Shown here: piece after piece, positions 5,881-63,450 of the stretch
Numbering within the stretch: the stretch's first letter is position 1
Layout: each line of letters starts with the position of its first letter
DNA from: Bacillota bacterium
GTDB taxonomy: Bacteria; Bacillota; Clostridia; Christensenellales; SZUA-584
Direction: 5' to 3'
Length of the DNA stretch: 64,000 bases
NCBI GenBank assembly: GCA_023459495.1
Contig: JAEWTL010000038.1
Span: forward strand, 113,321-177,320
Program-made: the position numbers and the translations under genes
The notes under the pieces: generated by a model
What the model was told of the DNA's origin: nothing
Database searches by the model: none
What the model saw: only the letters and a program-made list of their open reading frames with translations

Positions 5881-7634
5881 ACCTTCTCCGCTTTGATGGA
5901 TCTGGACGGCTTGCCGTCGTTGATTTCTTTGATCATGGCCAAGGGGATTTTGGGTTCGTGCTCATAGGTGAGCAGCCCATTTTGCTCCGTACCGACATCG
6001 GCCAGCTGGGTATAGCAATACCCCTGAACATAGCCGGAGCTGTGCAGCGCATGGACAAGCCCCTTAAAATGGGCCACAAAGCTATCCAACGTCTTGTCTT
6101 CAGAGTACCCCCAGGAATTTTCTCTGGAGTCACCCTGTGCAAAGCGTATGCCGCCGAACTCGCTTACGATGATGGGTTCGCTGCCGTACTCGCCGCCGCC
6201 TACATACAGCTTCTTACCATTGGGCAGGAATTCCATTATGCTCTTCAGGTTGGCATAGCGTTCCTCAATCACCGCCGCAACCGCCGCATAATCGTGAATG
6301 GTCAGCACATCGCTGCAGGTATGCTCCCACCCATCGTTATCAATCACCACGCGCGTGCTGTCCAGTGATTTTGTAATGTGATAAAGCGCCCGGCTGTGTC
6401 CCTGCTGCAATTTACTCTTGTGGATCTCCTGTACGCCCCACGATTCGTTCAGCGGAACCCATGCCACGATACAAGGATGATTATAATCCCGCTGAACAGC
6501 AGCCGTCCACTCCCTGTACATCCTTATCGCGTACTCTTCCGAATACAGATAGGCGGCTCCAATCTCACCCCAGACCAGCAGACCCATGCGGTCGGCATGG
6601 TAAAGGAAACGAGGGTCTTCCACCTTCTGATGCTTGCGGACGCCGTTAAAGCCCATTGCCTTCACCGCTTCAATATCCTTGATAAAAGCGTCGTCCGTGG
6701 GCGCGGTCATCAGCGACTCCGGCCAGTAACCCTGATCCAGCACCAGCTTTTGATAATATGGCCGGTTATTGAGCATGAACACATTATTCTCCACCGATAC
6801 CTTGCGCATGCCGAAATAAGAACCTACCGTATCCTCCTTTCGCCCTTCGCTGTAGACGTTGAACACGACGTCAAACAGCCGCGGGGTTTCCGGAGCCCAC
6901 GCGAGATCCTCGTAGAAGTTCCACGCCAGCAGCGCAGGCTGGTCGAGGTTAACCGTCAGCGAACCCTTGGGGCTTTGCGGTTGCACGGAAACGCTGGTCA
7001 CCGAAACGCCCTGAAAGGATATCTGGATTTCCAGCGTAAGGCCTTTGCCGCCGCAAAGCCTATAGTCAAATTTGATCGCTTTTTCGTCGAACAGCGGCGT
7101 CATCCGCACAGAATGCAGATGCGTAGTCGGCACGGCCTCCAACCAAACGCTCTGCCATATGCCGGTCGTATGCGTATAGAATATACTGCGGGGCTTTTCC
7201 TCCCAAAACTGCTTGCCCCGCGGCATTTCCAGGTCGGAGTGGTCGTCCTCCGCCTTCACCACCAGAACGTTGCTTTTATCGAAGTGCGCCGCGCCGGTGA
7301 TATCCGCGGAAAACCCGGTTTGTCCGCCGGTATGCTCCGCAACCAGCGCGCCGTTGACCCACACCTTGCAGGAATAATCCACCGCGCCGAAGTGCAACAG
7401 CAAAAGGTCTCCCTGCATGGCGGATGGAATATCAAATTCCTTCCGGTACCATACCGTACGGTGAAATTCGCTGTTGCCCAGCCCGGACAGCTTGCTTTCA
7501 TAGGAAAACGGTACATTTATTTTTTTATCGAACCCGTCATTGTCGAATGAGAAGTCCCATTCCCCGTTCAGCGATAGCCAGCTGTCTCGCACAAAGTCCG
7601 GCCTCGGGTATTCATTCCTGCTGATGTTGGTCAT
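5877..7634 (-). CDS. Glycoside hydrolase family 2 (beta-galactosidase-like), cytoplasmic
   Basis: 585 aa. GH2 sugar-binding region (WYRKEF, VWVNGALVAEHTGGQTGFSADIT), acid/base region NHPCIVAWVPLNESWG, nucleophile region IIVSEFGG. No signal peptide. Confidence 0.85.
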   Translation of the reverse strand: MTNISRNEYPRPDFVRDSWLSLNGEWDFSFDNDGFDKKINVPFSYESKLSGLGNSEFHRTVWYRKEFDIPSAMQGDLLLLHFGAVDYSCKVWVNGALVAEHTGGQTGFSADITGAAHFDKSNVLVVKAEDDHSDLEMPRGKQFWEEKPRSIFYTHTTGIWQSVWLEAVPTTHLHSVRMTPLFDEKAIKFDYRLCGGKGLTLEIQISFQGVSVTSVSVQPQSPKGSLTVNLDQPALLAWNFYEDLAWAPETPRLFDVVFNVYSEGRKEDTVGSYFGMRKVSVENNVFMLNNRPYYQKLVLDQGYWPESLMTAPTDDAFIKDIEAVKAMGFNGVRKHQKVEDPRFLYHADRMGLLVWGEIGAAYLYSEEYAIRMYREWTAAVQRDYNHPCIVAWVPLNESWGVQEIHKSKLQQGHSRALYHITKSLDSTRVVIDNDGWEHTCSDVLTIHDYAAVAAVIEERYANLKSIMEFLPNGKKLYVGGGEYGSEPIIVSEFGGIRFAQGDSRENSWGYSEDKTLDSFVAHFKGLVHALHSSGYVQGYCYTQLADVGTEQNGLLTYEHEPKIPLAMIKEINDGKPSRSIKAEKV

Positions 7635-7662
7635 TTTGCCCTCCGATGTAGTATTCTTAAAT

Positions 7663-9687
7663 TTATTGATACGTCATGATAAACGTAGCATCCGCCTGGT
7701 CCAGCGCTGTCGATATCTGCGAGATGATGAGATAGCTGTTGTAATGACGCATGTAGATACCGCTAAAATTGTATGTCTCAAAGGACACGCCGCTGGAGCT
7801 GGCAAGGCCGGTGTGCATTCTCCAGGTAGCGTCCTCCCAGAATACCTGTGTGCCATTGTTTTGCGATATGATGACATTTCCATTGTAATGGCGCAGGTAG
7901 TAGCCCGGATTATCCACCGACTCAAATGAGATGCAGCTCGAATCCGCAAGCCCCGGTACGATGCGCCACTGTGAACTGAAAAGCGACATCGTGGTGGAAG
8001 CGTTGGCAATCAGCGCGCTGCCCGAAGAGTTATGGTATATATGGCAGTCGCTGATGTTGTAGGAACGGATCCGGGCGATCTCGTAGATCCTTTCCAGGGT
8101 CCATTTCTGCGTATTGCTGGCGCTCGATGCATTCTGAACAACATATGTGTGCAGTGCCGTAGACTGGTTCTCCGTGTCGAGATAGAGCCCACTGCTTTCA
8201 TTCTGTATCTTGAAATGGCCGCTCCCGTCCGGAATGAACTTCCACCGCTGTGCCGCGGAATAGTTTTTATCCCACTGCACAATTCTAGTACCGCTCTGCT
8301 GCGACCCGTTGGGGTTATCGAGTGCCAGATCGCTGAAATTGCAGATCAGCGAGAAGTATTCACCCGTTATATTTTTGGTATGCCAGCTTTGAGTATGGTA
8401 CCCGTTATCACTCCACAGGATCATTTCGTTTCCCCAATCCATGGAGCCGCCGGCATCGTCAATACAGTAACCTGATGCAACATTGACAAGCTTATAATCA
8501 GCGCCGTCGATGATCAGCTGACTTCCATACAGCATCCCTGTGCCGCAGCGAATCTCGTTATAGGAACCGTTGTAATAGTTGTTGACCTCAATCAGCCTGC
8601 TGCCGTCAGCCACAAACGTTCCGCTCCAGCTGCTCGCCACCGATTCCTTCCTGACAGCGGTCAGCGGTGCATCGATCAGCTGCCACGTCTGGCCCGCATC
8701 CGTAGACGTATAGCACAGGCTGGGAGAGCAGGTGTCGTTCATGCCGCGCAGGAAGATGCGGCCATACGTGCTGCCGTCATCAATACAGGCGATTTCCGGG
8801 CATTGATACGCCGATGTGCCGGATGCCGCAACCGTGTTGCCCAGCGTCGTGATGCTGCCCCAATTGATGCCGTCCGAAGAAGTCCGGCAGGAGATGATGC
8901 CGCCGTGCCCGCCCGCGATGTTCTCATACGCCATAAAGTATGTGCCGTTGCTTAGCTGCCTGACGCGGGGCATGCCGGGCCGCCATAGCGATGGGTCCAC
9001 GCCGCGCACCCAATCCGCATCATATTCGCCCGCAATGATCGTATAGTTGCCCCAGGTCACTCCCCCATCCGACGAGGTCTCCAGCGCAATACACTGGTCA
9101 TACCCCGCCTGCCGCTCATCTGAGTAATAGCAGACCAGCTGTCCGGTACTGCTGATTGCAAATTCGGGTTCCCATACGCTCTGGCTTCCTCCTCTTGCCG
9201 CCAGATTGCTGTGGAGCGTCCACGTCGCGCCGTTGTCGGTGCTTTTCCATATGTGAATGCAGTAAGTCGCGTTGACGTCCCAATCGGAGGTCGCAAAGAG
9301 CACCGTGCCTGCCGAGAGATTCCCCAAAGACTGGGTAAGCACGAACATGCCCGGCATTCCCATTTTGTTTCTTGAGAGCCCTGCGTAATTGGAGGGATCC
9401 AGTTCGCTGACATAGGACCATGTTTTCCCCTGATCGGAGCTTTTATAAAAATAGAAGCTCTTCATTCCGGTCCAGTTCGTGGTGATCGGAAATTCCCGCT
9501 GCCATGTGGCCAGCAGGTCTCCGTTGGGCAACTGGACAACCCGCTCATAGAAGCACTGGTCGTCCGTGGTGTTTCCATAGATCGTCATACCATCCGCATC
9601 ATCAGCCAAAGCGGAAGTTAAGGGCAGCGTCGCAAGCATCACTAAGGTGACGAGCATCGAGAGAAGCCTTTTTGCACGTGGTTTCAT
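7663..9687 (-). CDS. Secreted BNR/Asp-box beta-propeller glycosidase-like protein with ricin-B (CBM13) and AbfB (CBM42) lectin domains
   Basis: Signal peptide MKPRAKRLLSMLVTLVMLATLPLTSALA. Five Asp-box repeats (SSDQGKTW, STDNGATW, SSDGGVTW, SSDGINW, STDAGQTW). QxW motifs (AQRWKF, TQKWTL). C-terminal AbfB-like segment (WRIVPGLADSSCISFESVDNPGYYLRHYNGNV...SGVSFETYNFSGIYMRHYNSYL). Confidence 0.75.
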   Translation of the reverse strand: MKPRAKRLLSMLVTLVMLATLPLTSALADDADGMTIYGNTTDDQCFYERVVQLPNGDLLATWQREFPITTNWTGMKSFYFYKSSDQGKTWSYVSELDPSNYAGLSRNKMGMPGMFVLTQSLGNLSAGTVLFATSDWDVNATYCIHIWKSTDNGATWTLHSNLAARGGSQSVWEPEFAISSTGQLVCYYSDERQAGYDQCIALETSSDGGVTWGNYTIIAGEYDADWVRGVDPSLWRPGMPRVRQLSNGTYFMAYENIAGGHGGIISCRTSSDGINWGSITTLGNTVAASGTSAYQCPEIACIDDGSTYGRIFLRGMNDTCSPSLCYTSTDAGQTWQLIDAPLTAVRKESVASSWSGTFVADGSRLIEVNNYYNGSYNEIRCGTGMLYGSQLIIDGADYKLVNVASGYCIDDAGGSMDWGNEMILWSDNGYHTQSWHTKNITGEYFSLICNFSDLALDNPNGSQQSGTRIVQWDKNYSAAQRWKFIPDGSGHFKIQNESSGLYLDTENQSTALHTYVVQNASSASNTQKWTLERIYEIARIRSYNISDCHIYHNSSGSALIANASTTMSLFSSQWRIVPGLADSSCISFESVDNPGYYLRHYNGNVIISQNNGTQVFWEDATWRMHTGLASSSGVSFETYNFSGIYMRHYNSYLIISQISTALDQADATFIMTYQ

Positions 9688-9702
9688 TTTGTATACCTCC
9701 TT

Positions 9703-11784
9703 TTATAATGGTTTTTTATAAAACTTGGCATAACCAATACTTTGGCCTTTTACGCGCATTCCTGTCCGTCCGGACAGTATCGGCGACGGATCGTAAGATT
9801 CCAGCACCGCAACCTTATCATCGTTCAAATATACCCGGATATCGTTTACGTCCATGCTCACGCGGAGCCTGCAAACACCCGTTGTGTCAATACTCGCGCT
9901 GCACAGTTCCTGCTCGTCATACCGGTGCCTGGTGAGCACCACCCGGCCCCGCTCCAGCGAAACGCAATAGCCAATAAAGAAGTTGATCCCCAGCTCCTTA
10001 TCGTCGCCTTCGCCGCCCTCGGACAGCTCGCTTGCCCGGAATATGATCCCGACAGCCGCATCATCAGCTTTTGGCTCAGGCTGAAGCTCCAGTCCCGCTT
10101 CAAAGGCAGCAGAGTCAAAGCCGCCCCAGCAGCGCTTGTCATACGGCCCGAAGCCACTGACCTCCGCCGCTATCGGTTCTTCGTTTCCAGCCTCAAAAAC
10201 CGAAAGTGTCTCGGGAGCACTCAGGCCGCCTTCCATTTCAACCGAAACCTCATGCAGCCCCTGCGGTAGCGTAAGCGTATACATAGCGATGTCCCTGCTG
10301 GCCGCTGACAGTACAGCCTTCACACCACTGCCATCGACGGTTACGGCAAGGTCTGCCTGAGCACGATCAACGGAGCTACAAGCCACTGCAAATATATAAT
10401 CCGTTGTCTTTGCAAGGTTAAGATACAGCTTTTCCTGCGCCCCTCCGCTGAGCGGTATCCGGCAGGGCACCGGAACAAACAGCTTGGCGGCAGCGGTTTG
10501 GGTATCCCCCGAATGGAACGCCGTATAGCCGATACCGACAGTAGGTCCCTCCGAAAAATAACCGATCCGGTCTCCGGGGCAAATGCAGACATCGCATTTC
10601 CCTGCCCTTATGCCATCCACATATATCTCAACCTCGCTCGTGCCATAACGGAGCTGCAGGCTGTGCAGCTCGCCATGCGCATACTCCCATGGAATCGCAC
10701 ATTCGGCCAGGAGCGTCCCGGCTGCATCGAACAGTCTGATATTGTTTGAAGCGGTATCGAGGATAAGCCGGAAACCGCCGACGCTGACGCCGTAAGATCC
10801 CGCGCCATCCAGCACGCGCAGGTTGAATTCCACAATGCCCGGAGCAGCGGTCAATGCACATCTGCAAAGGCACAGAAAATCTCCGAGCGATACGCGCAAG
10901 CCGCCCCGCGCTTCCCACTTTCCTTTCAGCACATCCCAATTATCGCCCAAGACCATGTTGTCCGAGAAGTCCGGCAAGGTCGGAGTAAACTGCGGAAAGT
11001 TTGCAGGCCCGAGCACGCGCATGTTTCCGTCCAGTACCACCGCGTCAATGTTCAGATCCCGCGTCCGGTCCGGATTGATATTATGGTACACGATGTACCG
11101 TGTCAGCATATCCGGGCCGTAAACCGTGGAGCTGTGTCCCAGCCCCACCCACGGTTCCTCTGTATGCACGATGATGGGGTTATTCTCGCAATCCACATAC
11201 CCGGTCAGCGGATGCCTGCTCGTCGCGGCATTGATGCGGTATCCTTTGGAGAGATAATGATTACCGGTATAGGTCATGTAGTAAATGCCGTTTCCCTTGA
11301 TGACCAGCGGGCCCTCCGTCCAGCCGTGCATGAAAGCGCCGGTATTTACCGGCGGGCCGAATTCGGCAGGCGAGTTCATCTCACAGCCCATTATGCCGCT
11401 GTCGTCCGCCCAATAGAAATACCATTTTCCATCGTCATCGATGAATACGGAACCGTCGATGCTGTGGCCGATATTGTCGGTGATCTTGCGGAAGGGCCCC
11501 GTGGGCCGCTCACTTTTCAGCACATAATGCCCCAGCCCGTGGGGAGACGTGTACATATAAAACGCGCCGTTCCAATACACCACCTCCGGTGCAAACGGCA
11601 CCAGCCCCGGGAAGGTGTCTGGCTCGATCGCGGGGCCTTCCAGCTGCCATGTGACGAGGTCATCCGAGCTCCAGCACCGAATATCCGGGTTGGTGGCGTA
11701 CAAATAATACTTTCCGTTGTGCCGTAGCACAAAGGGATCCGCAAAATCGCCCTGTTTTTTGATCGGGTTGCAGTAGAACTTCAT
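9703..11784 (-). CDS. Glycoside hydrolase family 43 with a large C-terminal beta-sandwich region, cytoplasmic
   Basis: 693 aa. The N-terminus DFADPFVLRHNGKYYLYATN carries the GH43 catalytic Asp region, and HGWTEGPLVIK carries the catalytic Glu region. No signal peptide. Confidence 0.85.
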   Translation of the reverse strand: MKFYCNPIKKQGDFADPFVLRHNGKYYLYATNPDIRCWSSDDLVTWQLEGPAIEPDTFPGLVPFAPEVVYWNGAFYMYTSPHGLGHYVLKSERPTGPFRKITDNIGHSIDGSVFIDDDGKWYFYWADDSGIMGCEMNSPAEFGPPVNTGAFMHGWTEGPLVIKGNGIYYMTYTGNHYLSKGYRINAATSRHPLTGYVDCENNPIIVHTEEPWVGLGHSSTVYGPDMLTRYIVYHNINPDRTRDLNIDAVVLDGNMRVLGPANFPQFTPTLPDFSDNMVLGDNWDVLKGKWEARGGLRVSLGDFLCLCRCALTAAPGIVEFNLRVLDGAGSYGVSVGGFRLILDTASNNIRLFDAAGTLLAECAIPWEYAHGELHSLQLRYGTSEVEIYVDGIRAGKCDVCICPGDRIGYFSEGPTVGIGYTAFHSGDTQTAAAKLFVPVPCRIPLSGGAQEKLYLNLAKTTDYIFAVACSSVDRAQADLAVTVDGSGVKAVLSAASRDIAMYTLTLPQGLHEVSVEMEGGLSAPETLSVFEAGNEEPIAAEVSGFGPYDKRCWGGFDSAAFEAGLELQPEPKADDAAVGIIFRASELSEGGEGDDKELGINFFIGYCVSLERGRVVLTRHRYDEQELCSASIDTTGVCRLRVSMDVNDIRVYLNDDKVAVLESYDPSPILSGRTGMRVKGQSIGYAKFYKKPL

Positions 11785-51038: not shown

Positions 51039-51905
51039 ATGTCTCCGTATCAAAAATTCCTGGCTGCGGTCAAAGAATTTTTCAGCAGTCATCCGGCACT
51101 GAAGGTCGTTTTTTCACTGTACCTCGTGATATTTGCGGCTGGCGGTTTCTTCTTTCTGCTTGGCACCTTTTTCATTGGGGGCTGGGGTGAAATGTCGATC
51201 TGTATCGGCACCTTCCTGATGCTCATTGGTCTTCTGCTGACCTTGTTTAATGAAGATATGATGGCGCTTGTCTTCACAAGCGGCGTTATTGCGTTGGTCA
51301 GTCTGGTTTCCTGGGTGCTCAATCTCGTAGGCGTGCTGTACGTGGGTGGATATGGTTATGTGTATATCAATTTCACGCTGACCCCGCTGTTCTACGCCGG
51401 GCTGTTCGGCTTTGTCGCAATCATTACGTCCATCAAGTCCAAGAAGTTCCACGCGTCGTTTTCCGCGATGGGCAAGCCCTCCGGCGTGCCCTGTCCGAAG
51501 TGCGGTGCCACCATCGTTCCCGGTGCGGCCTTCTGCCCGCAGTGCGGCGCACCCGCTCCGGCTCCCGTGCAGTATGCGCCTCCGGTTCCCCCGCAGTACG
51601 GTGCTCCGTACGCGCCGCAGCCTGCACCTCAGGCCGCCCCGCAGTATGCGCCTCCGGTTCCTCCGCAGCCCGTATACGCACCGCAGCCCGCTCCGCAGTA
51701 TGCGCCTCCGGTTCCCCCGCAGTACGCTCCGCAACCCGCTCCGCAGCCTGTGCCGCAGCCCGTTGCGCCCGAAGCCTCTGAGCCTGCGCTGAGCGAACCC
51801 GCAGCTACGGATTCCGCACCCGCAACCAAACCCTGCGTCAACTGCGGCGCAGAGCTTCCCGCAGGCGCCATGTTCTGCGGCAAGTGTGGTTCAAAGCAAC
51901 AGTAA
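51039..51905 (+). CDS. Membrane protein with two zinc-ribbon motifs and a proline-rich repeat region
   Basis: 288 aa. About four N-terminal hydrophobic helices, then CPKCGATIVPGAAFCPQCG, three QYAPPVPPQ repeats, and CVNCGAELPAGAMFCGKCG. Confidence 0.75.
   Translation: MSPYQKFLAAVKEFFSSHPALKVVFSLYLVIFAAGGFFFLLGTFFIGGWGEMSICIGTFLMLIGLLLTLFNEDMMALVFTSGVIALVSLVSWVLNLVGVLYVGGYGYVYINFTLTPLFYAGLFGFVAIITSIKSKKFHASFSAMGKPSGVPCPKCGATIVPGAAFCPQCGAPAPAPVQYAPPVPPQYGAPYAPQPAPQAAPQYAPPVPPQPVYAPQPAPQYAPPVPPQYAPQPAPQPVPQPVAPEASEPALSEPAATDSAPATKPCVNCGAELPAGAMFCGKCGSKQQ
51570..51722 (+). repeat. Three in-frame copies of a 27-nt repeat CAGTATGCGCCTCCGGTTCC(C/T)CCGCAG
   Basis: Copies at 51570-51596, 51642-51668 and 51696-51722, each encoding QYAPPVPPQ. 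Confidence 0.85.
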
Positions 51906-53410: not shown

Positions 53411-54703
53411 ATGAAAAGCGGCATCGTTATCCTGTCATCGTTTTTGATTATCGCTCTGTTGTGCGCATGCACGGTCGGCGGTGAGTCTGAGGCTCCATTC
53501 ACCTCTTCGTCGCCTACTGCCACGGTCACACCGGAGCCTGCCCCTTTGGCTGTAACGCGCACTGATCTTCCGGCGTACTTTGCGCCGGGACTTGACGCGC
53601 CTGGCGCGATTCCCGCAGAGCCGTACCGGATTGGCGTAGTCGTTGGGGACAACTTCAAGGATGCGGCGCTGCGCGGCGAATTTGAAAACCTTTGTACCCA
53701 ATATGCGGATGCTTTCAGCCTCGATATCTCTTTCCAGCTTTCCGTGACCGAAGCGTCGCAGCAGACCATTGTCCGGAACCTGCTGACCTCCGGCATCGAC
53801 CTTTTGATACTTTCCACCGGTGGGGATGCCCCCGCTTTGGGTGCACTGTGCGAGGAAGCCGGTGTGCCATACATCACAATGGACTGCCGTGCAGGGACGC
53901 CCGGACAGGGCCAGTACGTCTGCACTGTCGAGCGGGACGAATACCTGGTCGGCCTGCTGACGGGCTTTTCCATCATCGACACCCTGACCACGGCAAACGG
54001 CAAGCCTGAGGGCAGTATTGCCGAGATTGTGGGCGATGTGACCGCCTCGGCATCCATCCTGCGCTCCGCGGGGCTGCGGCGAGCGCTGGCCGCCTGCCCC
54101 GATATCCATGTGGTCTGCAGCGTCACTACCGCGGACGATACCGCGTATTACGCAGCGACTAACGTGATGAAAGCGTACCGGCAGGGTGAGCTGGACGGCA
54201 TCGTGATCTACAGCGATGAAGCCGCACTGGAAGTATTGCAGGCTGTCGTCAACTATGAGCGGAACGATCTACGCGGACGCATCTGGTCGGTTGGAGGCAC
54301 AAAGGACGGGCTCACCGGTGTTTGGTACGGCGAGCTTGCGCAGACCGTGGAACTGACCGCACAGACCGGCATGCTGGCGCTTGAATATGCCGTTCAGTAT
54401 TTAAACGGCAGCGGCAATATACCGCCCGTAGTTTGCAGCGTAACGCGCGCTTTTTCCGCTTCCTCTCAGGAGCAGAAGGATGAACTCGCGCGGATCATCG
54501 CGCAGATGGAAGAGTCCGGGTTCCACTCCTGCATGGAGAATCAGGGCAGCTACGATTTATTCATGCCCGATGAGCGGTTGACCTTGATCTATCCGCAGCA
54601 TTATTATGAATACGACGATATTCAGGCCTATATTGATGAGTTCCCTCCCTATACTACGCAGGATGCTGGTTATGAGTCGGAACCAATGGATGCGGCGGGC
54701 TAA
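53411..54703 (+). CDS. Type-I periplasmic-binding-protein-like lipoprotein (sugar-binding-domain-like) with no adjacent transporter genes
   Basis: 430 aa. Lipobox LLCACT, a Pro/Thr linker, then an alternating beta-alpha pattern (YRIGVVVGD, IDLLILSTGG, LDGIVIYSDEAA) reminiscent of Peripla_BP_1/4. Confidence 0.6.
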   Translation: MKSGIVILSSFLIIALLCACTVGGESEAPFTSSSPTATVTPEPAPLAVTRTDLPAYFAPGLDAPGAIPAEPYRIGVVVGDNFKDAALRGEFENLCTQYADAFSLDISFQLSVTEASQQTIVRNLLTSGIDLLILSTGGDAPALGALCEEAGVPYITMDCRAGTPGQGQYVCTVERDEYLVGLLTGFSIIDTLTTANGKPEGSIAEIVGDVTASASILRSAGLRRALAACPDIHVVCSVTTADDTAYYAATNVMKAYRQGELDGIVIYSDEAALEVLQAVVNYERNDLRGRIWSVGGTKDGLTGVWYGELAQTVELTAQTGMLALEYAVQYLNGSGNIPPVVCSVTRAFSASSQEQKDELARIIAQMEESGFHSCMENQGSYDLFMPDERLTLIYPQHYYEYDDIQAYIDEFPPYTTQDAGYESEPMDAAG

Positions 54704-54792
54704 AAAAACATAAAACGTTGTCACAATTCCTCATCTTATAGTATAATGAATCGCGTGTGGTGGAATAACCTTGAAGGGACCGAGTTAAAAAA

Positions 54793-56658
54793 ATGAACTA
54801 CGCAAGGCGGCGAAAGGTACGTCGTACCGCCCAGACGCGGTTTTATATTATTATCGCGGCGCTCGCGGTGGCATTGGCAGTTGGCATATTCTTCATCGTC
54901 CAGGCCATAAACGATCAACCGGGCACAGGCGAATCCCCCATCACATCTGTGGCAATCTCCCCGCCTGATGCTTCCGACATACCATCTTATACGATCACGC
55001 CCACAGAGGAGCCGACGCCTACTCCGGCACCGTCGCTTTCGTTTGATCTTGTCCCAACAGCGGTTGAGGGGAAGACTGATCCCGCGACATTTGAGTTTGA
55101 GACGGATATCATGGTGGGCGACCAGATCGTGGAGACCTACCAGCGCCCCAACCCGATCAGCTTCGGTTCGGGCGACGAATACACGGCGCTTGAGGGCGTC
55201 ACCACGTTCCGCGGCAACAACTATCGGGATACCGCGAGCTGGGGTACGGCGGAGATTACAGATGAACAACTGGCTGTAATCAACACCAAGCATAACGGCG
55301 CAATCGGTACTTGGGGCGGCTTTGCGTGGACAGGCCAGCCGCTTGTCGTCAAGTGGCCGGACGAGTTGCGCGCCCACATGACCTCGCTCTACGACGAATT
55401 CAGGAATAAGCAGGGTTTTACAGAAGTCATCATCGCCGCGCTCGACGGTTATATCTACTTTGAGGAATTGGATACCGGAGAAAAGACGCGCGACCCGATC
55501 AACGTCGGCGCGCCCATCAAGGGTTCCCCCACCCTTGACCCGCGTGGCTACCCGATACTCTACGCGGGTCAGGGTGTCGGCCCGACGGGCGGGACGACGG
55601 ACGATCACATGTATTTCAGGGCTTTCAACCTTATCGACAACACGCTGCTGTACAAGTGGGGCTACGACTCCGCCGATCCGTTTGCGTACCGTGGCTGGCA
55701 GGCATATGACTCCTCCCCGCTGATCAGCGCGGACGCAGATACACTGATCCAGCCGGGCGAGAACGGCGTGCTGTATACGATCCGGCTGAATACGAGCTAC
55801 GACCCGGCCACCGGATCGGTATCCATGAACCCCGAACCGGTCGTCAAATATCGCTACACCTCCCCGATGAACCGTACGCGTGAAGCAAATGCGGGCGGTC
55901 GCTGGGGCACCGAAGACTCCATTGTGGCGTGGCGCAACTACATCATATTCACCGACAACGCGGGCGTGCTACAGTGCCTCGACCTGAATACCATGCAGCC
56001 TGTCTACGTCAACGACCTGCGCAACGACAGCGACGTCTCCATGGTGCTGGAGGAAGATCCGGAGAACAACACCTTTTACCTGTACGCGGCGTGCGAATAT
56101 GACGATGACGTGGCTAACGTGGATCCCGGACAGGGCACGTGTTATGCGTACAAGATCAACGGACTCACCGGCGAAATTATCCATGAGGTATCCTATACCG
56201 TCGATTCCTCCAATACAAGTGTAGACGGCGGTATCCTCGCCTCTCCGATCCTCGGCAAGGAAGGCACGAGCCTCGAAGGGCTCATCATCTACAACGTCAC
56301 GGCGGAGGTAAAGGGCAACTCCACCACAAGCCGCCTTGTGGCCCTGAACAAGGACACCTTCGAGGAGGTCTGGAGCTACGACATGGATGTACCCGGATGG
56401 TCGCCCTCCTCACCCGTACCCGTATATACGGCGGACGGACAAGGCTATATCGTACAGTGCGACCGGAATGGCGATGTGGCGCTGATCAAGGCGGACGGCA
56501 CGTCATGCGAGGAAGTGTACCGGCTGGAGCTCGAGAAGACGGACAGCGAAGGCAAGGTAACCGAACAGAATAACTTTGAAGCAACGCCAGTAGTCTATGG
56601 CAATATGATCGTCGTGGGTTCGCGAAGCAGGAACCTGTTCTTTATCAAAATATCATAG
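54793..56658 (+). CDS. Membrane-anchored PQQ-like (BamB-like) beta-propeller repeat protein, paralog 1
   Basis: 621 aa. Arg-rich stub MNYARRRKVRRTAQTR, one TM helix, a Thr/Pro linker, and propeller-type motifs (LVALNKDTFEEVW, VDGGILASPILGKEGT, FEATPVVYGNMIVVGSRS). Confidence 0.75.
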   Translation: MNYARRRKVRRTAQTRFYIIIAALAVALAVGIFFIVQAINDQPGTGESPITSVAISPPDASDIPSYTITPTEEPTPTPAPSLSFDLVPTAVEGKTDPATFEFETDIMVGDQIVETYQRPNPISFGSGDEYTALEGVTTFRGNNYRDTASWGTAEITDEQLAVINTKHNGAIGTWGGFAWTGQPLVVKWPDELRAHMTSLYDEFRNKQGFTEVIIAALDGYIYFEELDTGEKTRDPINVGAPIKGSPTLDPRGYPILYAGQGVGPTGGTTDDHMYFRAFNLIDNTLLYKWGYDSADPFAYRGWQAYDSSPLISADADTLIQPGENGVLYTIRLNTSYDPATGSVSMNPEPVVKYRYTSPMNRTREANAGGRWGTEDSIVAWRNYIIFTDNAGVLQCLDLNTMQPVYVNDLRNDSDVSMVLEEDPENNTFYLYAACEYDDDVANVDPGQGTCYAYKINGLTGEIIHEVSYTVDSSNTSVDGGILASPILGKEGTSLEGLIIYNVTAEVKGNSTTSRLVALNKDTFEEVWSYDMDVPGWSPSSPVPVYTADGQGYIVQCDRNGDVALIKADGTSCEEVYRLELEKTDSEGKVTEQNNFEATPVVYGNMIVVGSRSRNLFFIKIS

Positions 56659-56769
56659 TTTACTTAAGTCTGGAGCACATACTTCGGGCTTTCCTCATAT
56701 GCAGCTGGCCGGGCTCAGGCGGTGGGCGATGCATGGTGGTGACGGAAAGGAATTGGAGAAGAAATCGAA

Positions 56770-58668
56770 ATGAAAAAAGCAAACTACGCAAGACGGCGCA
56801 AGGTACGTCGTACCGCCCAAACGAGATTTTATATTATTATTGCAGTGCTCGCAGTGGCATTGGCAGTCGGCATATTCTTTATTGTCAAGGCCGTAAACGA
56901 TCAGCCGGGTATAGGCGAGTCGCCCAGTTCATCCGCAACGATTACCCCGCCCGACGCTTCCGATATACCGTCGCAGACGGTCACGCCTACGGAGGAGCCG
57001 ACGCCCACTCCCGCACCGTCGCTCTCGCCCGACCTGATACCCACAGCTTCCGACAAGACCGATCCGTCGTTGTTCGGCTTTGAGACGCATATCTATGTGG
57101 ATGGCGTGGAGCAGGACAGCTATACACGCGAGGGTTCCATCAACTTTAGCTCCGGCGCGGAGTATACCGGACTGCCGGGCGTTACGACCTACCGCGGTAA
57201 CAACTACCGTGACGGCGCTTCCTCCTGGGGCACGGCTGAGATTACAAACGAAACGTTGACGCTGCTCGATATTGATAAAACCACGAGCGCCATTGGGCGC
57301 TGGCGCGGCAGCGCGTGCACCGGCCAGCCGCTCATCGTAACCTGGCCCGATTCCACGCGCAAGATCATGACCTCATTGTACGATGAGTTCCGCAACAGCA
57401 CGCAATACCACGACGACTTTACCGAGGTCATCATCGCTTCGGTGGATGGTAACGTCTATTTCATGGAGCTTTCCACAGGCAAAAAGACCCGCGACCCCAT
57501 CAAGATCGGCTCACCCACCAAAGGTACGCCCTCGCTCGATCCGCGCGGCTGGCCCATCATCTACGTGGGACAAGGCCTCAATCCGGAAGGCAGCGTTACG
57601 GCATGTGATAACATGTATTTCCGTGCGTACAGCCTGATCGACTATACAGAACTGCTGGAAGTGGGCGCGGTCAGCGCAGACCCCACGGCTTACCGCAACT
57701 GGCAGGCCTATGACGCGAGCCCGCTCGTTGATGCGGGGACTGATACGCTCATCTGGCCGGGTGAAAGCGGTGTGCTCTATACCGTCAAGATGAATACGCA
57801 GTATGACGAAGCGGCTGGAACGCTGACGGTGAATCCCGACCCGACCGTCAAATACACGTATACTTCGACCCGAAACCAGGCGACGAAGATCTACGGCATG
57901 GAGAACTCCCCGGTGGGCTGGCGCAACTACCTGTTCTTCACGGACAACATCGGCATGCTGCAATGCGTAAACCTCAACACGATGGAGCTGGTATACGGGA
58001 ACAATCTGGAGAATGACAGTGACGTCTCCATGGTGCTGGAGGAGGATCCAACGGCCCAGCGCGTCTACCTTTACACCGGCTGTGAATACGACGACTCAGC
58101 GGCCCAGTCGGATCAAAGCCACGGCGAATGCTACGCGCGCAAGCTCGACGCCATGACAGGCGATATCATCTGGACCACGCCCTTCCCCATATACACCGCG
58201 ATCGGGGGCAGCGTGGACGGCGGCATCCTTGCCTCGCCTATCCTGGGCAAAGAAGGCACGACGATGGAGGGGCTCATCATCTATACGATATCTTCCGTGA
58301 TCAAGGATGACGGCAAGACGACTGCGATGATGGTCGCTTTGGACAAGAACGACGGCCACATCGTGTGGCAGATCGACCTGTATGAGGATATTCCCGACGA
58401 TGCGGGCTGGACGCCCTCTTCCGCCGCTGCCGTATATACCGCGGACGGCAAAGGCTACATCGTGCAGTGCCTGTTCAAGGGCTACATTAAGCTGATCCGC
58501 GTGGACGGCGCCACGGCAGACGGCGCTGCGGTTGTGGATTCCATTAATGTCAGCGAGGAGTTAGGCACCGACGAGCCCAACAGCTTTGAGGCAACGCCTG
58601 CCGTTTTCGGCAACACCATCGTGGTGGGATCGCGAAGCGGACACTTCTTCTTCCTGACGATAGGCTGA
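56770..58668 (+). CDS. Membrane-anchored PQQ-like beta-propeller repeat protein, paralog 2
   Basis: 632 aa with the same architecture. MKKANYARRRKVRRTAQTR, MVALDKNDGHIVW, FEATPAVFGNTIVVGSRS. Confidence 0.75.
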   Translation: MKKANYARRRKVRRTAQTRFYIIIAVLAVALAVGIFFIVKAVNDQPGIGESPSSSATITPPDASDIPSQTVTPTEEPTPTPAPSLSPDLIPTASDKTDPSLFGFETHIYVDGVEQDSYTREGSINFSSGAEYTGLPGVTTYRGNNYRDGASSWGTAEITNETLTLLDIDKTTSAIGRWRGSACTGQPLIVTWPDSTRKIMTSLYDEFRNSTQYHDDFTEVIIASVDGNVYFMELSTGKKTRDPIKIGSPTKGTPSLDPRGWPIIYVGQGLNPEGSVTACDNMYFRAYSLIDYTELLEVGAVSADPTAYRNWQAYDASPLVDAGTDTLIWPGESGVLYTVKMNTQYDEAAGTLTVNPDPTVKYTYTSTRNQATKIYGMENSPVGWRNYLFFTDNIGMLQCVNLNTMELVYGNNLENDSDVSMVLEEDPTAQRVYLYTGCEYDDSAAQSDQSHGECYARKLDAMTGDIIWTTPFPIYTAIGGSVDGGILASPILGKEGTTMEGLIIYTISSVIKDDGKTTAMMVALDKNDGHIVWQIDLYEDIPDDAGWTPSSAAAVYTADGKGYIVQCLFKGYIKLIRVDGATADGAAVVDSINVSEELGTDEPNSFEATPAVFGNTIVVGSRSGHFFFLTIG

Positions 58669-58678
58669 CCAAACGACG

Positions 58679-58705
58679 AGCCTCCGGCAGGTCCGGGGGC
58701 TTTTT
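58679..58705 (+). terminator. Rho-independent terminator after paralog 2
   Basis: AGCCTCCGG-CAGGT-CCGGGGGCT (one G-U pair) followed by TTTTT. Confidence 0.7.
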
Positions 58706-58801
58706 CTTACGGGCCCCCGAAAAGCGAGCTTTTTGGGCTTACATCCGGAGCATTTCAGGCTAAATATCCGGCGTGATGGCAATACTGCTGAAAGGATCAA
58801 C

Positions 58802-60667
58802 ATGAGGAGAAGGAACTACCACTTGAGAAGACGCCATAAACGAAACCACAGAAGCTACGGGCGCAGAAATCGCGGCCCTGTCATCGCACTGGCAGCGGTG
58901 CTGATTGTTGCGGCTGCAGTCGGCATATTCTTTCTCGTCCGGGCGCTGGGTCCCGGCGGAAACAGCGGCGAGACCGCGTCACAAACCACCGCCTCCGCAC
59001 CGCCCACGCCCACACCCGTACCCTCGCTTGCGCTGAGCCTCGTTCCGCGGGCCACCGATAAGACTGACCCCGCACTGTTCAGCTTCGAGACAGGCATCAT
59101 GGTCGGTACGCAGGAGGTAGACTCGTATACGCGCGAAGAACCTATCAGCTTCGGCTCGGGCGATGAATATACCACGCTACCCGGCATCATCACGTTCCGC
59201 GGCAACAACTACCGCGACATGTCCAGCTACGGCACCGCGACGATTACGGATGAAACGCTTTCGCTGATGCTGACGAAGAATACCATTAATATCGGCAACT
59301 ACGGCGGCTCCGGCTGGACAGGCCAGCCGCTTGTCGTCCAGTGGCCCAAAGAGCTCCGCGAAAAGATGACCACGCTTAAAGAGCCATATCGTTCGCAGGA
59401 TGGCTTCACCGAGGTCATCCTCTGCTCGTTGGACGGCCGCATTTATTTTATGGACCTTGCGACAGGTGACAAGACGCGTGATTTCATTACCATCGGCGCG
59501 CCTACAAAAGGCACGGCCTCGCTCGACCCGCGCGGCTACCCCATCATCTACGTAGGACAGGGGCTGCAGTCGGACGGAAATGCCGATAACTGCAAGAACA
59601 TGTACATGCGCGCCTACAGCCTGATCGACGGCAGCAAGCTCATGGAGATCGGTTATGAGGATGCCGACCCGTTCGCATACCGTTACTGGCAGGCGTACGA
59701 TTCCAGCCCGCTCGTGGACGCCAAGACGGATACTTTGATCTGGCCGGGCGAGAACGGAATACTGTATACCTTTAAGCTGAACTCCAGCTACGACCCCACG
59801 ACGGGCATTGTTGCCATGGCAGCCAACCCGGCCGTGGTGAAATACCGCTATACCTCCCCGCTCAACACCTCGCGCGAAACCGACAAGGGCGGGCGCTGGG
59901 GCACGGAGGACTCCGCCGTGGCGTGGCGCAACTACCTGATGTACACCGACAACGCGGGTGTGCTGCAATGCGTGGATCTGAACACGATGCAGCTCGTTTA
60001 CGCGAATGACCTCGGCAATGACAGCGATGTATCCATGGTACTTGAGGAGGTGCCGGAGGAGCAGCGCGTGTACCTTTATGCGGGCTGCGAGTACGACGAC
60101 GATGTGATGAACACACAGCCGGGCACCGGCCCGTGCTACGCGTACAAGATCGACGCCATGACGGGTGAAATCCTCTGGAAAGTCGCTTTTACCGTGGATT
60201 CAGGCAACTCCAGCGTGGACGGCGGCATCCTTGCCTCCCCCGTGCTGGGCCGCGAAGGCACCACGCTTGAAGGATTAGTGATCTACAACGTTACTCAGGT
60301 GATTTCGGGCGACACCAATACAAGCATACTGGTTGCGATCAACAAGGATACCGGCGAGATTGTCTGGCAATACAGCATGGGAGTTTCGGGGTGGTCGTGC
60401 TCGTCGCCCGTGGCGGTATATTCCGACCGCAAGGATGCCAGCGGCAAAACCATCGCCTACCTCGTGCAGTGCGATATTAGCAGTACGGTCGCGCTGATCC
60501 GCGTGGACGGCGCTGTTGAGAACGGCTACACCCAGGTAGCCAGATTGAACTTAAACGATGAGATCAACGAAACAGGCAATAAATTTGAGGCTACGCCCGC
60601 CATATACGGCAACACAATCGTCATTGCCTCACGAGGCAACCACGTATTCTTTATCAAGATAAACTGA
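58802..60667 (+). CDS. Membrane-anchored PQQ-like beta-propeller repeat protein, paralog 3
   Basis: Start set at MRRRNYHLRRRHKRNHRSYGRRNRGPV (ATG at 58802, AAAGGA upstream), because the track start at 58733 lies in the terminator region. LVAINKDTGEIVW, FEATPAIYGNTIVIASRG. Confidence 0.75.
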   Translation: MRRRNYHLRRRHKRNHRSYGRRNRGPVIALAAVLIVAAAVGIFFLVRALGPGGNSGETASQTTASAPPTPTPVPSLALSLVPRATDKTDPALFSFETGIMVGTQEVDSYTREEPISFGSGDEYTTLPGIITFRGNNYRDMSSYGTATITDETLSLMLTKNTINIGNYGGSGWTGQPLVVQWPKELREKMTTLKEPYRSQDGFTEVILCSLDGRIYFMDLATGDKTRDFITIGAPTKGTASLDPRGYPIIYVGQGLQSDGNADNCKNMYMRAYSLIDGSKLMEIGYEDADPFAYRYWQAYDSSPLVDAKTDTLIWPGENGILYTFKLNSSYDPTTGIVAMAANPAVVKYRYTSPLNTSRETDKGGRWGTEDSAVAWRNYLMYTDNAGVLQCVDLNTMQLVYANDLGNDSDVSMVLEEVPEEQRVYLYAGCEYDDDVMNTQPGTGPCYAYKIDAMTGEILWKVAFTVDSGNSSVDGGILASPVLGREGTTLEGLVIYNVTQVISGDTNTSILVAINKDTGEIVWQYSMGVSGWSCSSPVAVYSDRKDASGKTIAYLVQCDISSTVALIRVDGAVENGYTQVARLNLNDEINETGNKFEATPAIYGNTIVIASRGNHVFFIKIN

Positions 60668-60672
60668 GCCTG

Positions 60673-60701
60673 AAGCCCTCGCAAAAGCGGGGGCTTTTTT
60701 T
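60673..60701 (+). terminator. Rho-independent terminator after paralog 3
   Basis: AAGCCCTCGC-AAAA-GCGGGGGCTT followed by a T-run. Confidence 0.7.
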
Positions 60702-60764: not shown

Positions 60765-60980
60765 ATGATCGAAATGGAGAACCTGTCAGTGAAGTTGAAT
60801 GTCATTACACACCGGTGTCCGCAGAACCATCCGTGCCCGTCGTTGCGCGTTTGCCCTACAGGCGCGCTCACGCAGCATGGTTATGATGCGCCGGTGGTGG
60901 ATCAGGAGAAGTGCATCGCCTGCGGGAAGTGTGTACGGTTTTGCCCGATGCAGGCGTTACAATTAGAAGAGGAGAGGTAA
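60765..60980 (+). CDS. Small 4Fe-4S ferredoxin-domain protein
   Basis: 71 aa. CIACGKCVRFCP plus a degenerate first cluster, CPQNHPCPSLRVCP. Its stop lies 4 nt before the next ATG. The RBS is weak, so the start is uncertain. Confidence 0.6.
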   Translation: MIEMENLSVKLNVITHRCPQNHPCPSLRVCPTGALTQHGYDAPVVDQEKCIACGKCVRFCPMQALQLEEER

Positions 60981-60984
60981 TTTT

Positions 60985-63450
60985 ATGCCAAAAAAAGTGG
61001 TCATCGTAGGCGGCGTGGCGGGCGGCGCGAGCTGCGCGGCGCGTCTGAGAAGGCTCGACGAAAGCGCCGAGATCATCATGCTCGAACGGGGGCCGTACAT
61101 ATCCTTTGCCAACTGCGGCTTGCCCTATCACATCGGCGGCGTGATCGGCCAGCGTGAACAGCTGCTGCTGCAGACGCCCGGCTCGTTCCACGCACGCTTT
61201 GGCGTGGATGTGCGCGTAAACAGCGAAGTCACGGCCATCGACCACGAGAAAAAGACCGTCACGGTCAAAAACGAAAGCGGAACGTATACGGAAAGCTACG
61301 ATACGCTCGTACTGTCCACCGGCTCGTCCCCCATCGTGCCGAAGCTGCCCGGCTCGGACGATCCCAGAGTGATGCAGCTGTGGACCATTCCCGACATGGA
61401 CAACATCATCAAAACCATCAACGATAACCATGCGCAGCGCGCTGTGGTGGTGGGCGGTGGTTTCATCGGCATTGAGATGGCAGAGAACCTCGTGGACGCG
61501 GGCCTGTCCGTGACGCTGGTGGAGATGCTCGATCAGGTGATGCCCCCCATTGATTATGAGATGGCGCAGATGCTGCACAAGCACATGGCGGACGCGGGCG
61601 TGGGCCTTGCGCTGGGCGAAGGCGTGGAGCGCTTTGAGGATACCGGCAAGGGGCTTCGCGTCGTCACCTCCAAGCGGAGCATCGAAACCGACCTCGTAAT
61701 ACTCGCCATCGGCGTTCGGCCCAACTCGCAGCTGGCTAAAGACGCCGGGCTTAACCTCAACGCGCGGGGCGGCATCGTGGTCGACGAGTACCTGAAGACC
61801 AGCGACGAGAACATCTATGCCGTGGGCGACGCGGTGGAGACCGAGAATTTTGTGACGCATGAGCGCACCATGATCCCGCTTGCCGGGCCGGCCAACAAGA
61901 TGGGCCGCATGGCGGCGGACAACATCAGCGGCATGAACCGCACCTACAAAGGCACGCAGGGCGCATCGGTCGCCAAGGTGTTCGATATGACCGTGGCCAG
62001 CGTGGGCCTCAATGAGAAGCAGCTGCGCGCCGCGGGCAAGAAGATCAACGAAGACTACAAGGTGACGGTAATGCACCCGCTGTCCAACGCGGGCTACTAC
62101 CCGGGCGGCATGCCGCTGACCTTGAAGGTCATTTTCGACAAGAAGGATGGGCGTATCCTGGGTGCGCAGTCCGTGGGCTACAAGGGTGTGGAGAAGCGCA
62201 TCGACGTAATCTCCACCGCCATGCGTTTTAACGCCACCATATACGACCTTGAGGAGACGGAGCTGTGCTACGCGCCGCCGTATTCCTCCGCGAAGGACCC
62301 GGTCAACATGGCGGGCTTCTCCGGTGCGAACGTGCTGGAAGGAACGGTGGACAACATCACGTTTGGCGAGCTGGCCGACCTGCCCAAGGACACGGTTTTC
62401 CTCGATGTACGCACCGCGCCCGAGGTGCAAATGGGCGCGATCCCCGGCAGCGTGCATGTCCCGGTGGACAGCATGCGCGAGCAGCTTGTCAATCTGGATA
62501 AGAGCAAATCGTACGTGGTCTACTGCGCCGTGGGTATCCGCGCGTACATCGCGTGCCGCATCATGAAGCAGAACGGCTTCAACAACGTGCGCAACCTCGC
62601 GGGCGGTTACACCACCTACCGCGCGGCTTCCGGCAACTACACGCTGAAAACCGCAGAACCCGAAGCGCCCAAGGCTGACAAGAGCAAGCCCATGTCAGCC
62701 GCGGACGACGCGGGCAACACCATCACGGTCAACGCGTGCGGCTTGCAGTGCCCCGGCCCGGTCATCAAGCTCTACGAGGCCATGACGAACGCGGAAAACG
62801 GCGATGTGATCCACATCACGTCCACCGATCCCGGCTTCTTCGCAGACGCGGCGGCATGGTGCTCCCGCACGAAGAACACCTATATGAAGGGTGAAAAGCA
62901 GGAAGACGGCTTCTCGGTCTGGATCAAAAAGGGCTGCGAAGGCGAAAGTGCCACGGCAGGATCGTGTGGCGTGGGCGGCGGCACCGATAAGTCGATGGTC
63001 GTGTTCAGCGGCGACCTTGACAAGGCGCTCGCGAGCTTCATCATTGCCAACGGCGCGGCGGCGATGGGCCGCAAGGTGACGATGTTCTTTACCTTCTGGG
63101 GCCTCAACATCCTGCGGCGGCACGAAAAGGTAAAGGTGCAAAAGTCGTTCATCGAGAAGATGTTCGGCGCGATGATGCCGCGCGGCACAAGCAAGCTCAC
63201 GCTCTCCAAGATGAACATGATGGGCATGGGCTCCGCCATGATGAAGGGCATCATGAAGAAGAAGAACGTGGCGGCGCTGGATGAACTGATTGCGCAGGCC
63301 AAGAAGAACGGCGTGCGGATGGTGGCGTGCACCATGTCCATGGACGTGATGGGCATCCACAAGGAAGAACTGATCGACGGCGTGGACCTGGCGGGCGTGG
63401 CATCCTACCTCGCCGCAGCGGAGAACTCCGACACGAATCTGTTTATATAG
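60985..63450 (+). CDS. Four-domain fusion: CoA-disulfide/persulfide-reductase-like FAD oxidoreductase, rhodanese, TusA/SirA-like and DsrE/DsrF-like domains
   Basis: 821 aa. VVIVGGVAGGASCAARL, SFANCGLPYH, rhodanese YCAVGIRAY, TusA motif CGLQCPGPVIKL, and a DsrE-like tail (MVVFSGDLDKALASFIIANGAAAMG...MVACTMSMDVMGI). Confidence 0.82.
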   Translation: MPKKVVIVGGVAGGASCAARLRRLDESAEIIMLERGPYISFANCGLPYHIGGVIGQREQLLLQTPGSFHARFGVDVRVNSEVTAIDHEKKTVTVKNESGTYTESYDTLVLSTGSSPIVPKLPGSDDPRVMQLWTIPDMDNIIKTINDNHAQRAVVVGGGFIGIEMAENLVDAGLSVTLVEMLDQVMPPIDYEMAQMLHKHMADAGVGLALGEGVERFEDTGKGLRVVTSKRSIETDLVILAIGVRPNSQLAKDAGLNLNARGGIVVDEYLKTSDENIYAVGDAVETENFVTHERTMIPLAGPANKMGRMAADNISGMNRTYKGTQGASVAKVFDMTVASVGLNEKQLRAAGKKINEDYKVTVMHPLSNAGYYPGGMPLTLKVIFDKKDGRILGAQSVGYKGVEKRIDVISTAMRFNATIYDLEETELCYAPPYSSAKDPVNMAGFSGANVLEGTVDNITFGELADLPKDTVFLDVRTAPEVQMGAIPGSVHVPVDSMREQLVNLDKSKSYVVYCAVGIRAYIACRIMKQNGFNNVRNLAGGYTTYRAASGNYTLKTAEPEAPKADKSKPMSAADDAGNTITVNACGLQCPGPVIKLYEAMTNAENGDVIHITSTDPGFFADAAAWCSRTKNTYMKGEKQEDGFSVWIKKGCEGESATAGSCGVGGGTDKSMVVFSGDLDKALASFIIANGAAAMGRKVTMFFTFWGLNILRRHEKVKVQKSFIEKMFGAMMPRGTSKLTLSKMNMMGMGSAMMKGIMKKKNVAALDELIAQAKKNGVRMVACTMSMDVMGIHKEELIDGVDLAGVASYLAAAENSDTNLFI

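Follow-up and report, generated by a model that had tools for sequence, protein, structure and literature searches.

The window analysed here comprises 64,000 nucleotides of a Bacillota genome of the Christensenellales (assembly GCA_023459495.1, contig JAEWTL010000038.1, positions 113,321 to 177,320) and carries three consecutive plus-strand genes for membrane-anchored proteins with a predicted eight-bladed β-propeller. The proteins belong to a large, mis-named and uncharacterised family of Bacillota, the fold itself being of a known kind. The most informative clue to its function, missed in the original prediction made from the letters of this DNA, is the fusion of several relatives to domains of the penicillin-binding protein (PBP) type, and the value of the finding lies in this testable link between a mis-named family and penicillin-binding-type enzymes. 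We tentatively favour a role of the propellers as wall-facing adaptors or ligand-binding modules for cell-envelope enzymes or envelope remodelling.

Architecture and fold of the three propellers

Paralog 1 (54793..56658, 621 amino acids), paralog 2 (56770..58668, 632 amino acids, member of a separate old clade) and paralog 3 (58802..60667, 621 amino acids) follow one another on the plus strand with no gene interleaved, as had been claimed. The mechanically called open reading frame (ORF) of paralog 3 begins at TTG 58733 and gives 644 amino acids; the ATG at 58802, with the Shine-Dalgarno-like sequence GAAAGGA 8 nt 5′ of it, gives the length of about 621 amino acids originally assigned to the protein. 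ORFs and hydropathy agree with the single shared architecture described before, which in all three proteins consists of an Arg/Lys-rich stub, one transmembrane helix, a Pro/Thr/Ser linker and a domain of about 530 residues. All the conserved blocks listed at that time are found in the alignment (TFRGNNYRD, TGQPLxVxWP, LDPRGxPI, NDSDVSMVLEE, CEYDD, VDGGILASP, FEATP and others).

The N-terminal stubs contain 17-26 residues, of which 7-12 are Lys or Arg and none is Asp or Glu, and each copy has one strongly hydrophobic 19-residue window (mean Kyte-Doolittle value about 3.0, the next best window reaching 1.3 at most). In paralog 1 the best window, YIIIAALAVALAVGIFFIV (54844..54900, plus strand), has a mean of 2.93 and follows a stretch containing 7 Lys/Arg but nothing acidic. 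The 60 residues following the helix are 38-52% Pro/Thr/Ser in each copy. The layout of paralog 1 is a stub at residues 1-17, the transmembrane helix at 18-36, a disordered Pro/Thr linker at about 41-76, and a pre-propeller hairpin plus eight-bladed propeller spanning about 95-621. Following the positive-inside rule, a single-pass N-in anchor with the large domain outside the membrane is predicted for all three, in line with the extracytoplasmic location proposed earlier. Pfam scan and sequence inspection gave no cell-wall anchoring or adhesin repeats in the three copies. An anti-sigma or signalling role of these proteins is unlikely because the cytoplasmic stub is limited to 17-26 residues.

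The AlphaFold2 model of copy 1, built with a 40-sequence alignment, has a predicted local distance difference test (pLDDT) value of 87.6 and a predicted template modelling score (pTM) of 0.83, with a helix at residues 3-40 and pLDDT below 50 for residues 41-76. We read the DSSP strands of the model as a short pre-propeller hairpin and eight four-stranded blades; in our strand grouping the N-terminal TFRGNN strand (134-136) completes the last blade. When the model was compared with the PDB by Foldseek, more than 1000 propellers were matched, with probability 1.0 to eight-bladed propellers of the pyrroloquinoline quinone (PQQ)-like type. The top matches were tetrathionate hydrolase (E 1.4e-14), BamB, YxaL and PQQ dehydrogenases, all at 10-15% identity and with template modelling (TM) scores of 0.49 or less when normalised to the query; normalised to the target, the best scores (0.70-0.76) were those of BamB, YxaL and a designer propeller. 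Model and Foldseek search bear out the PQQ/BamB-like propeller of the original prediction and add a blade number of eight. The predicted fold is a decorated PQQ-like eight-bladed propeller outside any characterised family.

Profile searches lead to the same place. Pfam Beta-prop_ACSF4 matched at E 1e-6 to 5e-8 (copy 1 5e-8, copy 2 1e-6), and PQQ_2 rose above its cutoff of 27.6 bits in copy 3 (30.6 bits) and stayed below it in copies 1 and 2. PQQ (PF01011; cutoff 26.7 bits) was unmatched in copy 1 and gave 13.6 bits in copy 2 and 25.9 bits in copy 3. NCBIfam held nothing usable: the quinoprotein equivalogs were unmatched, and TIGR04528, 'acido-empty-quinoprotein', scored 17.8 bits against 650. 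A search of PDB sequences with the single protein returned zero matches, and the 40-sequence profile returned single-blade matches only, to designer 'Cake' proteins, PQQ alcohol dehydrogenase (PQQ-ADH) and BamB. No match specific to the propeller family of the window emerged from Pfam, NCBIfam or PDB sequences, in keeping with the earlier statement that no characterised family claims it, and no paper on the family was found in the literature searched.

Database entries of the family are named 'PQQ-binding-like beta-propeller repeat protein', 'BamB' (outer membrane protein assembly factor) or 'hypothetical'. These names and the weak Pfam PQQ/PQQ_2 matches are what speaks for PQQ-dependent (quinoprotein) dehydrogenases or true BamB orthologs, an explanation that is hardly tenable and already largely refuted. 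PF01011 remains under its cutoff in every copy, the equivalog models of NCBIfam do not respond, and the vicinal Cys-Cys of type I enzymes is not present, there being no CC dipeptide in any copy. As to BamB, NF008351 gives 13.8 bits against a required 423 and TIGR03300 10.8-12.9 bits against 285; the anchor is a transmembrane helix instead of a lipobox, whose cysteine is not present in any copy; and most Bacillota have neither an outer membrane nor the β-barrel assembly machinery. The labels 'BamB' and 'PQQ-binding' are misleading for these organisms.

Fusions to penicillin-binding-type domains

Fusions were surveyed in a sample of 50 long relatives of 753-1317 amino acids, in which Beta-prop_ACSF4 was matched in 50/50 and PQQ_2 in 49/50. 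Five of the 50 carry a Beta-lactamase2 domain and two a Peptidase_S11 domain, in both cases N-terminal to the propeller; the remaining long relatives have long disordered cytoplasmic tails or unassigned segments. The PBP-type-fused relatives are 37-40% identical to the window proteins across the whole propeller.

At the 90% identity level, at least 36 clusters contain the direct fusion of a class-A beta-lactamase-like domain to the propeller; identities among the beta-lactamase-like domains go down to 26%, and the products are mostly lipoproteins annotated as 'serine hydrolase'. The fusion is a robust architecture. The subgroup of P0153 keeps the STSK, SDN and K-I/T-G triad, and in the subgroup of P0289, P0295 and P0300 both the lysine of SxxK and the SDN motif are gone, for which reason its beta-lactamase-like domain is probably a pseudoenzyme. 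The AlphaFold2 model of one such fusion (pTM 0.79) has a confident inter-domain linker, which suggests that the two domains are held in a fixed mutual orientation.

At least three clusters contain the Peptidase_S11 fusion, and their S11 domains share only 29% identity. In P0140 the DacB-like S11 module has intact STTK (SxxK), SGN and KTG motifs and matches Bacillus subtilis DacB (PDB 3mfd, E 5e-33). The module is followed by its own membrane anchor and then by a segment alignable at 37% identity with stub, transmembrane helix, linker and propeller of copy 1, starting at residue 4 of the latter, an arrangement that bears the signature of two adjacent genes fused. Since two different PBP-type enzymes, members of one superfamily, have been fused to the propeller in two different ways, the sequences argue for functional coupling.

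At locus L089 the gene of a beta-lactamase-propeller fusion (6666-10565) overlaps the stop of a DUF212 gene, which in turn follows nusB, xseA, xseB and a polyprenyl synthase gene. This single observation may indicate an operon link to polyprenyl-phosphate metabolism.

Family size and hosts

Clusters at 90% identity matching copy 1 number more than 3300. When the family profile was searched exhaustively against clusters formed at 50% identity, 959 passed an E threshold of 1e-3 and 371 a threshold of 1e-30. With 959 clusters as a minimum, the family amounts to thousands of proteins, from gut and digester Clostridia and some Bacilli, and would deserve a profile model of its own even without a function. 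Named hosts among Clostridia include Christensenellales, Oscillospiraceae, Faecousia and others, with Christensenella hongkongensis HKU16 and Haloimpatiens massiliensis as cultured carriers; Bacilli are represented by Cohnella sp. AR92, Anaerobacillus alkaliphilus and Bacillus sp. B190/17. All named hosts are Bacillota except for one metagenome-assembled genome (MAG) labelled Burkholderiales, in which locus L011 (JBLNCA010000005.1) carries a tandem propeller pair 70% identical to a window copy. Because every other named host belongs to Bacillota, the label is probably a binning error.

A genome may hold several loci, as L009 and L012 of one MAG and L056 and L061 of another. Many distant members, P0150, P0174, P0222, L072 and L083 among them, have cytoplasmic N-terminal tails of 100-780 residues. 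The tails of distant members are of low complexity, being made of Gly/Ser/Tyr/Arg repeats or rich in Pro/Gln/Ala or acidic residues, and some distant members show additional unassigned extracellular segments ahead of the propeller.

Age and divergence of the paralogs

The three proteins align end to end, with 61% identity to copy 1, and tblastn inside the window detected exactly three copies (E = 0 each), copy 2 being about 59% identical to copy 1 and 52-54% to copy 3. Synonymous distances (dS) by the Nei-Gojobori method are 1.38-1.48, that is, saturated, and the ratio of nonsynonymous to synonymous distances (dN/dS) is 0.22-0.28. In a neighbour-joining tree the copies fall in three different clades. 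The closest orthologs of copy 1 are in L008 (84%) and L009 (80%), those of copy 3 are L008 copy 2 (72%) and L014 (71%), and the best relatives of copy 2 in other genomes reach 69-73%. Every copy of the window is nearer to orthologs elsewhere (72-84%) than to its own neighbours, and the nearest relative, L008, holds orthologs of copies 1 and 3 only. The separation is repeated in a distant Oscillospiraceae-like group, in whose pairs the first and second genes also occupy separate clades of the tree. A recent amplification was rejected on account of the saturated dS and of the closer orthologs that each copy has in other genomes. The distances uphold the view, already put forward by eye, that the duplicates are old and subject to purifying selection.

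The 5′ ends of copies 1 and 2 (54793-55090 and 56770-57070), which code for stub, transmembrane helix and linker, share 81% nucleotide identity over 275 nt. In the first 100 columns of their alignment dS is 0.81 and dN 0.08, against 1.68 and 0.37 in the rest. That the 5′ ends are so much more alike than the remainder suggests partial gene conversion between these neighbouring copies.

Locus organisation and neighbouring genes

Copy number was counted in 74 loci from GTDB species representatives: 45 carry one copy, 28 a tandem pair and one a triplet. Restricted to loci flanked on either side by 2.5 kb or more, the count was 29 singles and 23 pairs. The triplet is not a conserved system. The original prediction had seen an organised array in it, which these counts and the variation of neighbours by lineage do not bear out; the contrary evidence that it had named, single-copy homologs in unrelated contexts, is in part what is seen.

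Neighbourhoods were clustered over 80 genome or contig loci and 85 further, mostly metagenomic, loci, and no family-wide partner gene emerged from either set, neighbours being lineage-specific. In the closest clade the order is a Zn-ribbon membrane protein, CinA on the opposite strand, an optional Peripla_BP_4 lipoprotein, an optional ARMT1-like gene, one to three propellers, an optional YhfC on the opposite strand, and GltD/DHODB-type genes. Within the window the Zn-ribbon protein (51039-51905) is a 288-residue membrane protein with two zinc-ribbon motifs split by a Pro/Ala/Gln-rich repeat (PQYAPPVPPQ...), and its homologs adjoin CinA in 22 related loci. Neither the cultured Haloimpatiens and Cohnella nor a 2.45-Mb MAG contig shows a related gene context.

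Upstream of copy 1 lies, on the plus strand, the gene of a 430-residue orphan lipoprotein of the solute-binding fold (53411..54703; Peripla_BP_4, PF13407, E 7.6e-19), a possible partner of the propellers. It is a CUT2-like protein, distantly akin to ribose- and galactofuranose-binding proteins (PDB 2ioy, E 7e-13), scores far under the NCBIfam equivalog cutoffs, and has no gene for an ATP-binding cassette (ABC) permease or ATPase adjacent to it. Among 19 related loci, most have a homolog encoded in the same orientation, no more than two genes upstream. Between the two genes a sigma-70-like promoter match, TTGTCA-18-TATAAT (54718..54747, plus strand), agrees with the consensus at 11/12 positions, as a pattern match only. 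A terminator-like hairpin follows paralog 2 (58678..58702, plus strand; 10-bp stem with 7 GC pairs, then a T-run), which suggests that copies 1 and 2 share one transcript and copy 3 is on another. A second one follows paralog 3 (60672..60697, plus strand; 11-bp stem with 7 GC pairs, then TTTTTTG) and divides the propeller genes from the genes of a 71-residue 4Fe-4S ferredoxin (60765-60980) and of an 821-residue fusion of CoA-disulfide reductase (CoADR), rhodanese, TusA and a DsrE2-like domain (60985-63450). Ferredoxin and fusion look like a module for handling persulfide or polysulfide. A gene of 821 or 845 amino acids stands at the position of the CoADR fusion in the window genome and in L008 only, homology being assumed for L008. 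Constant adjacency to lipoprotein or CoADR fusion, which had been raised as a question for homologs, does not hold, the former being confined to the closest clade and the latter to these two genomes.

With this module directly downstream, the propellers could be sulfur enzymes resembling tetrathionate or polythionate hydrolases, acting with the ferredoxin and the CoADR-rhodanese-TusA-DsrE fusion in extracellular sulfur metabolism, and the tetrathionate hydrolase structures 6l8a and 7cqy are indeed the top Foldseek match, over about 550 aligned columns. Identity to them is 13-15%, however, at a root-mean-square deviation of 10.6-12 Å and with TM-scores no better than those of BamB, and neither structure is matched by the sequence or by the 40-sequence profile when PDB sequences are searched with E values as high as 10 allowed. 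The hairpin between copy 3 and the downstream genes is a strong one, the downstream gene position is shared by the window genome and L008 alone, and the known tetrathionate hydrolases come from acidophilic sulfur oxidisers (PMC10859504). Since the fold match is generic and the neighbour is unconserved and lies beyond a terminator, a sulfur enzyme of this kind is very unlikely.

PADLOC gave zero defence-system matches, and the Rfam and tRNA scans of the window were empty. The segment 42001-46000 has a GC content of 0.44-0.45 against 0.50-0.60 elsewhere and a flip in the sign of the GC skew; by its composition it may be a foreign island.

A model for the propellers and its alternatives

In the model that we favour, a short positive cytoplasmic stub and one membrane-spanning helix, N-in, would anchor each propeller, and a flexible Pro/Thr-rich tether of about 50 residues would hold it at the level of the cell wall; topology and tether match what is expected of a wall-facing protein. 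The eight-bladed, PQQ-like domain would act outside the membrane and without cofactor. A conserved polar ring round its central funnel would serve to bind a partner enzyme or a ligand derived from the wall, and the propeller would position or regulate peptidoglycan or other envelope enzymes, for example penicillin-binding-type DD-peptidases. A complex with the upstream solute-binding-fold lipoprotein, like that of mycobacterial Rv3035 with FecB, could be formed, and the paralogs would supply differing partner or ligand specificities. Sequence architecture, predicted fold, family size, paralog age, fusions and gene adjacency are shown by the analysis; the outward location, the funnel placement of the conserved residues, the cell-wall role and any complex with the lipoprotein are inferred. 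The more specific proposal, that the family as a whole provides Bacillota with tethered adaptors docking PBP-type DD-peptidases, solute-binding-fold lipoproteins or both, is possible but doubtful.

Conservation was assessed on 115 representatives sharing no more than 50% identity. Among polar residues it is highest at R140, R145, Q182, D218, N324, S376, D388, D411 and S539/S540, which our strand order would place in D-to-A and B-to-C loops of several blades, at the rim of the funnel top. That so many acidic and polar positions are invariant throughout a very wide family is more typical of active sites than of scaffolds like BamB. It is compatible with the main rival to the adaptor model, a rather unlikely one in our judgement: cofactor-free tethered surface enzymes, lyases or hydrolases of an extracellular glycan or other polymer, would serve nutrient acquisition, with paralogs diverged in substrate and the upstream sugar-binding-fold lipoprotein capturing the product. 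Enzymes are among the top Foldseek matches (tetrathionate hydrolase, PQQ dehydrogenases), the tandem arrangement of diverged paralogs and the presence of more than one locus in a genome recall enzyme families that have diversified by substrate, and the orphan lipoprotein directly upstream is of the CUT2 sugar-binding type. Against such enzymes, the propellers lack a consistent link to any carbohydrate-active enzyme, transporter or regulator, known propeller lyases and glycosidases are unmatched in Pfam and in the top 50 Foldseek matches, and the recurrent fusion partners are PBP-type and not carbohydrate-binding or glycosidase modules.

The matches best by TM-score, BamB, YxaL and the designer propeller, are scaffolds, and envelope proteases or pseudoproteases adjoin the propellers in three clades (the YhfC intramembrane metalloprotease, a rhomboid-like protein and, by eye, an HtrA-like one). 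Both observations would suit structural or adhesive proteins of the surface, or scaffolds that assist, like chaperones, in folding and quality control of secreted proteins, with no specific peptidoglycan link. The protease links are lineage-specific and could be due to chance, the conservation is far above what adhesins usually show, and wall-anchoring and adhesin repeats were not found in the window copies; functions of this kind appear unlikely.

A number of observations weigh against the adaptor model. A PBP-type domain is present in just 7 of the 50 long relatives, and in one subgroup of the beta-lactamase fusions the catalytic motifs are lost. The placement of the conserved residues at the funnel follows from DSSP strand order only. 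Multiple paralogs and loci per genome, together with the many conserved polar residues, would be expected of an enzyme family no less than of a scaffold. The adjacency of the lipoprotein is restricted to the 19 loci of the closest clade and could be inherited synteny, the promoter-like site separates its gene from copy 1, and it belongs to a solute-binding family other than that of FecB. In other lineages the neighbours are unrelated, being DUF1002, a weakly rhomboid-like membrane protein (Pfam E 0.003), YhfC or nothing recurrent. The literature searched gave no direct functional data on any member of the family.

Were the envelope reading true, the propellers would add a so far unrecognised accessory layer to the assembly or remodelling of the wall, with a bearing on susceptibility to beta-lactams and lysozyme and on the physiology of the poorly studied Christensenellales. 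The DacB-like and beta-lactamase-like fusions, together with the cultured carriers, make this hypothesis directly testable.

Comparison with known systems

Type I PQQ alcohol and methanol dehydrogenases share the fold superfamily and the weak Pfam PQQ matches, but these matches stay under the Pfam cutoff, and their Cys-Cys motif and a match to their quinoprotein equivalogs are missing in the window copies. The tetrathionate hydrolase of Acidithiobacillus ferrooxidans (6l8a, 7cqy), a decorated and cofactor-free eight-bladed propeller, gives the best Foldseek E and the longest alignments; it differs in being unmatched by the sequence profile and in its physiology, that of acidophilic sulfur oxidisers. 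YxaL of Bacillus subtilis/velezensis (PDB 7dxn) is, like the predicted domain, an extracytoplasmic eight-bladed PQQ-like propeller of Bacillota, with no cofactor known, and aligns with target-normalised TM-scores of 0.72-0.76 at 15% identity. YxaL, however, is a secreted protein of about 370-410 amino acids (PMC6483160) that is not membrane-tethered, and the family profile finds no match to it among PDB sequences. BamB (YfgL), the lipoprotein of Gram-negative β-barrel assembly, has the eight-bladed PQQ-like fold in common with the model (Foldseek E about 1e-12, target-normalised TM-score 0.63-0.74); identity is 12-14%, and the window domain is about 150 residues larger, anchored by a transmembrane helix and hosted by Bacillota.

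A precedent is offered by Rv3035 of Mycobacterium tuberculosis, a lipoprotein with a membrane-anchored eight-bladed propeller whose structural neighbours are BamB, tetrathionate hydrolase and PQQ dehydrogenases (PMC13041763). Rv3035 pairs tightly and 1:1 with FecB, a lipoprotein of the solute-binding fold, and connects FecB to AftB, an arabinofuranosyltransferase of the wall (PMC13041763). Rv3035 differs from the window proteins in its lipid anchor, in size and in its actinomycetotal host, whereas these have an N-terminal transmembrane helix with a Pro/Thr tether and one to three paralogs per locus; FecB is likewise not of the Peripla_BP_4 family. Mycobacterial chains are not among the PDB sequence matches or the top 50 Foldseek matches, a comparison in which the Rv3035 sequence itself was not included. 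The likeness would lie in a membrane-anchored extracytoplasmic propeller of eight predicted blades with the same classes of structural neighbours, and, by adjacency of genes alone, in a solute-binding-fold lipoprotein upstream where Rv3035 has FecB as a partner. If the docking of PBP-type enzymes or lipoproteins were true, the family would correspond, in Gram-positive bacteria, to envelope scaffolds of the kind of Rv3035, BamB or the Lpo activators, with tandem paralogs providing distinct partner specificities.

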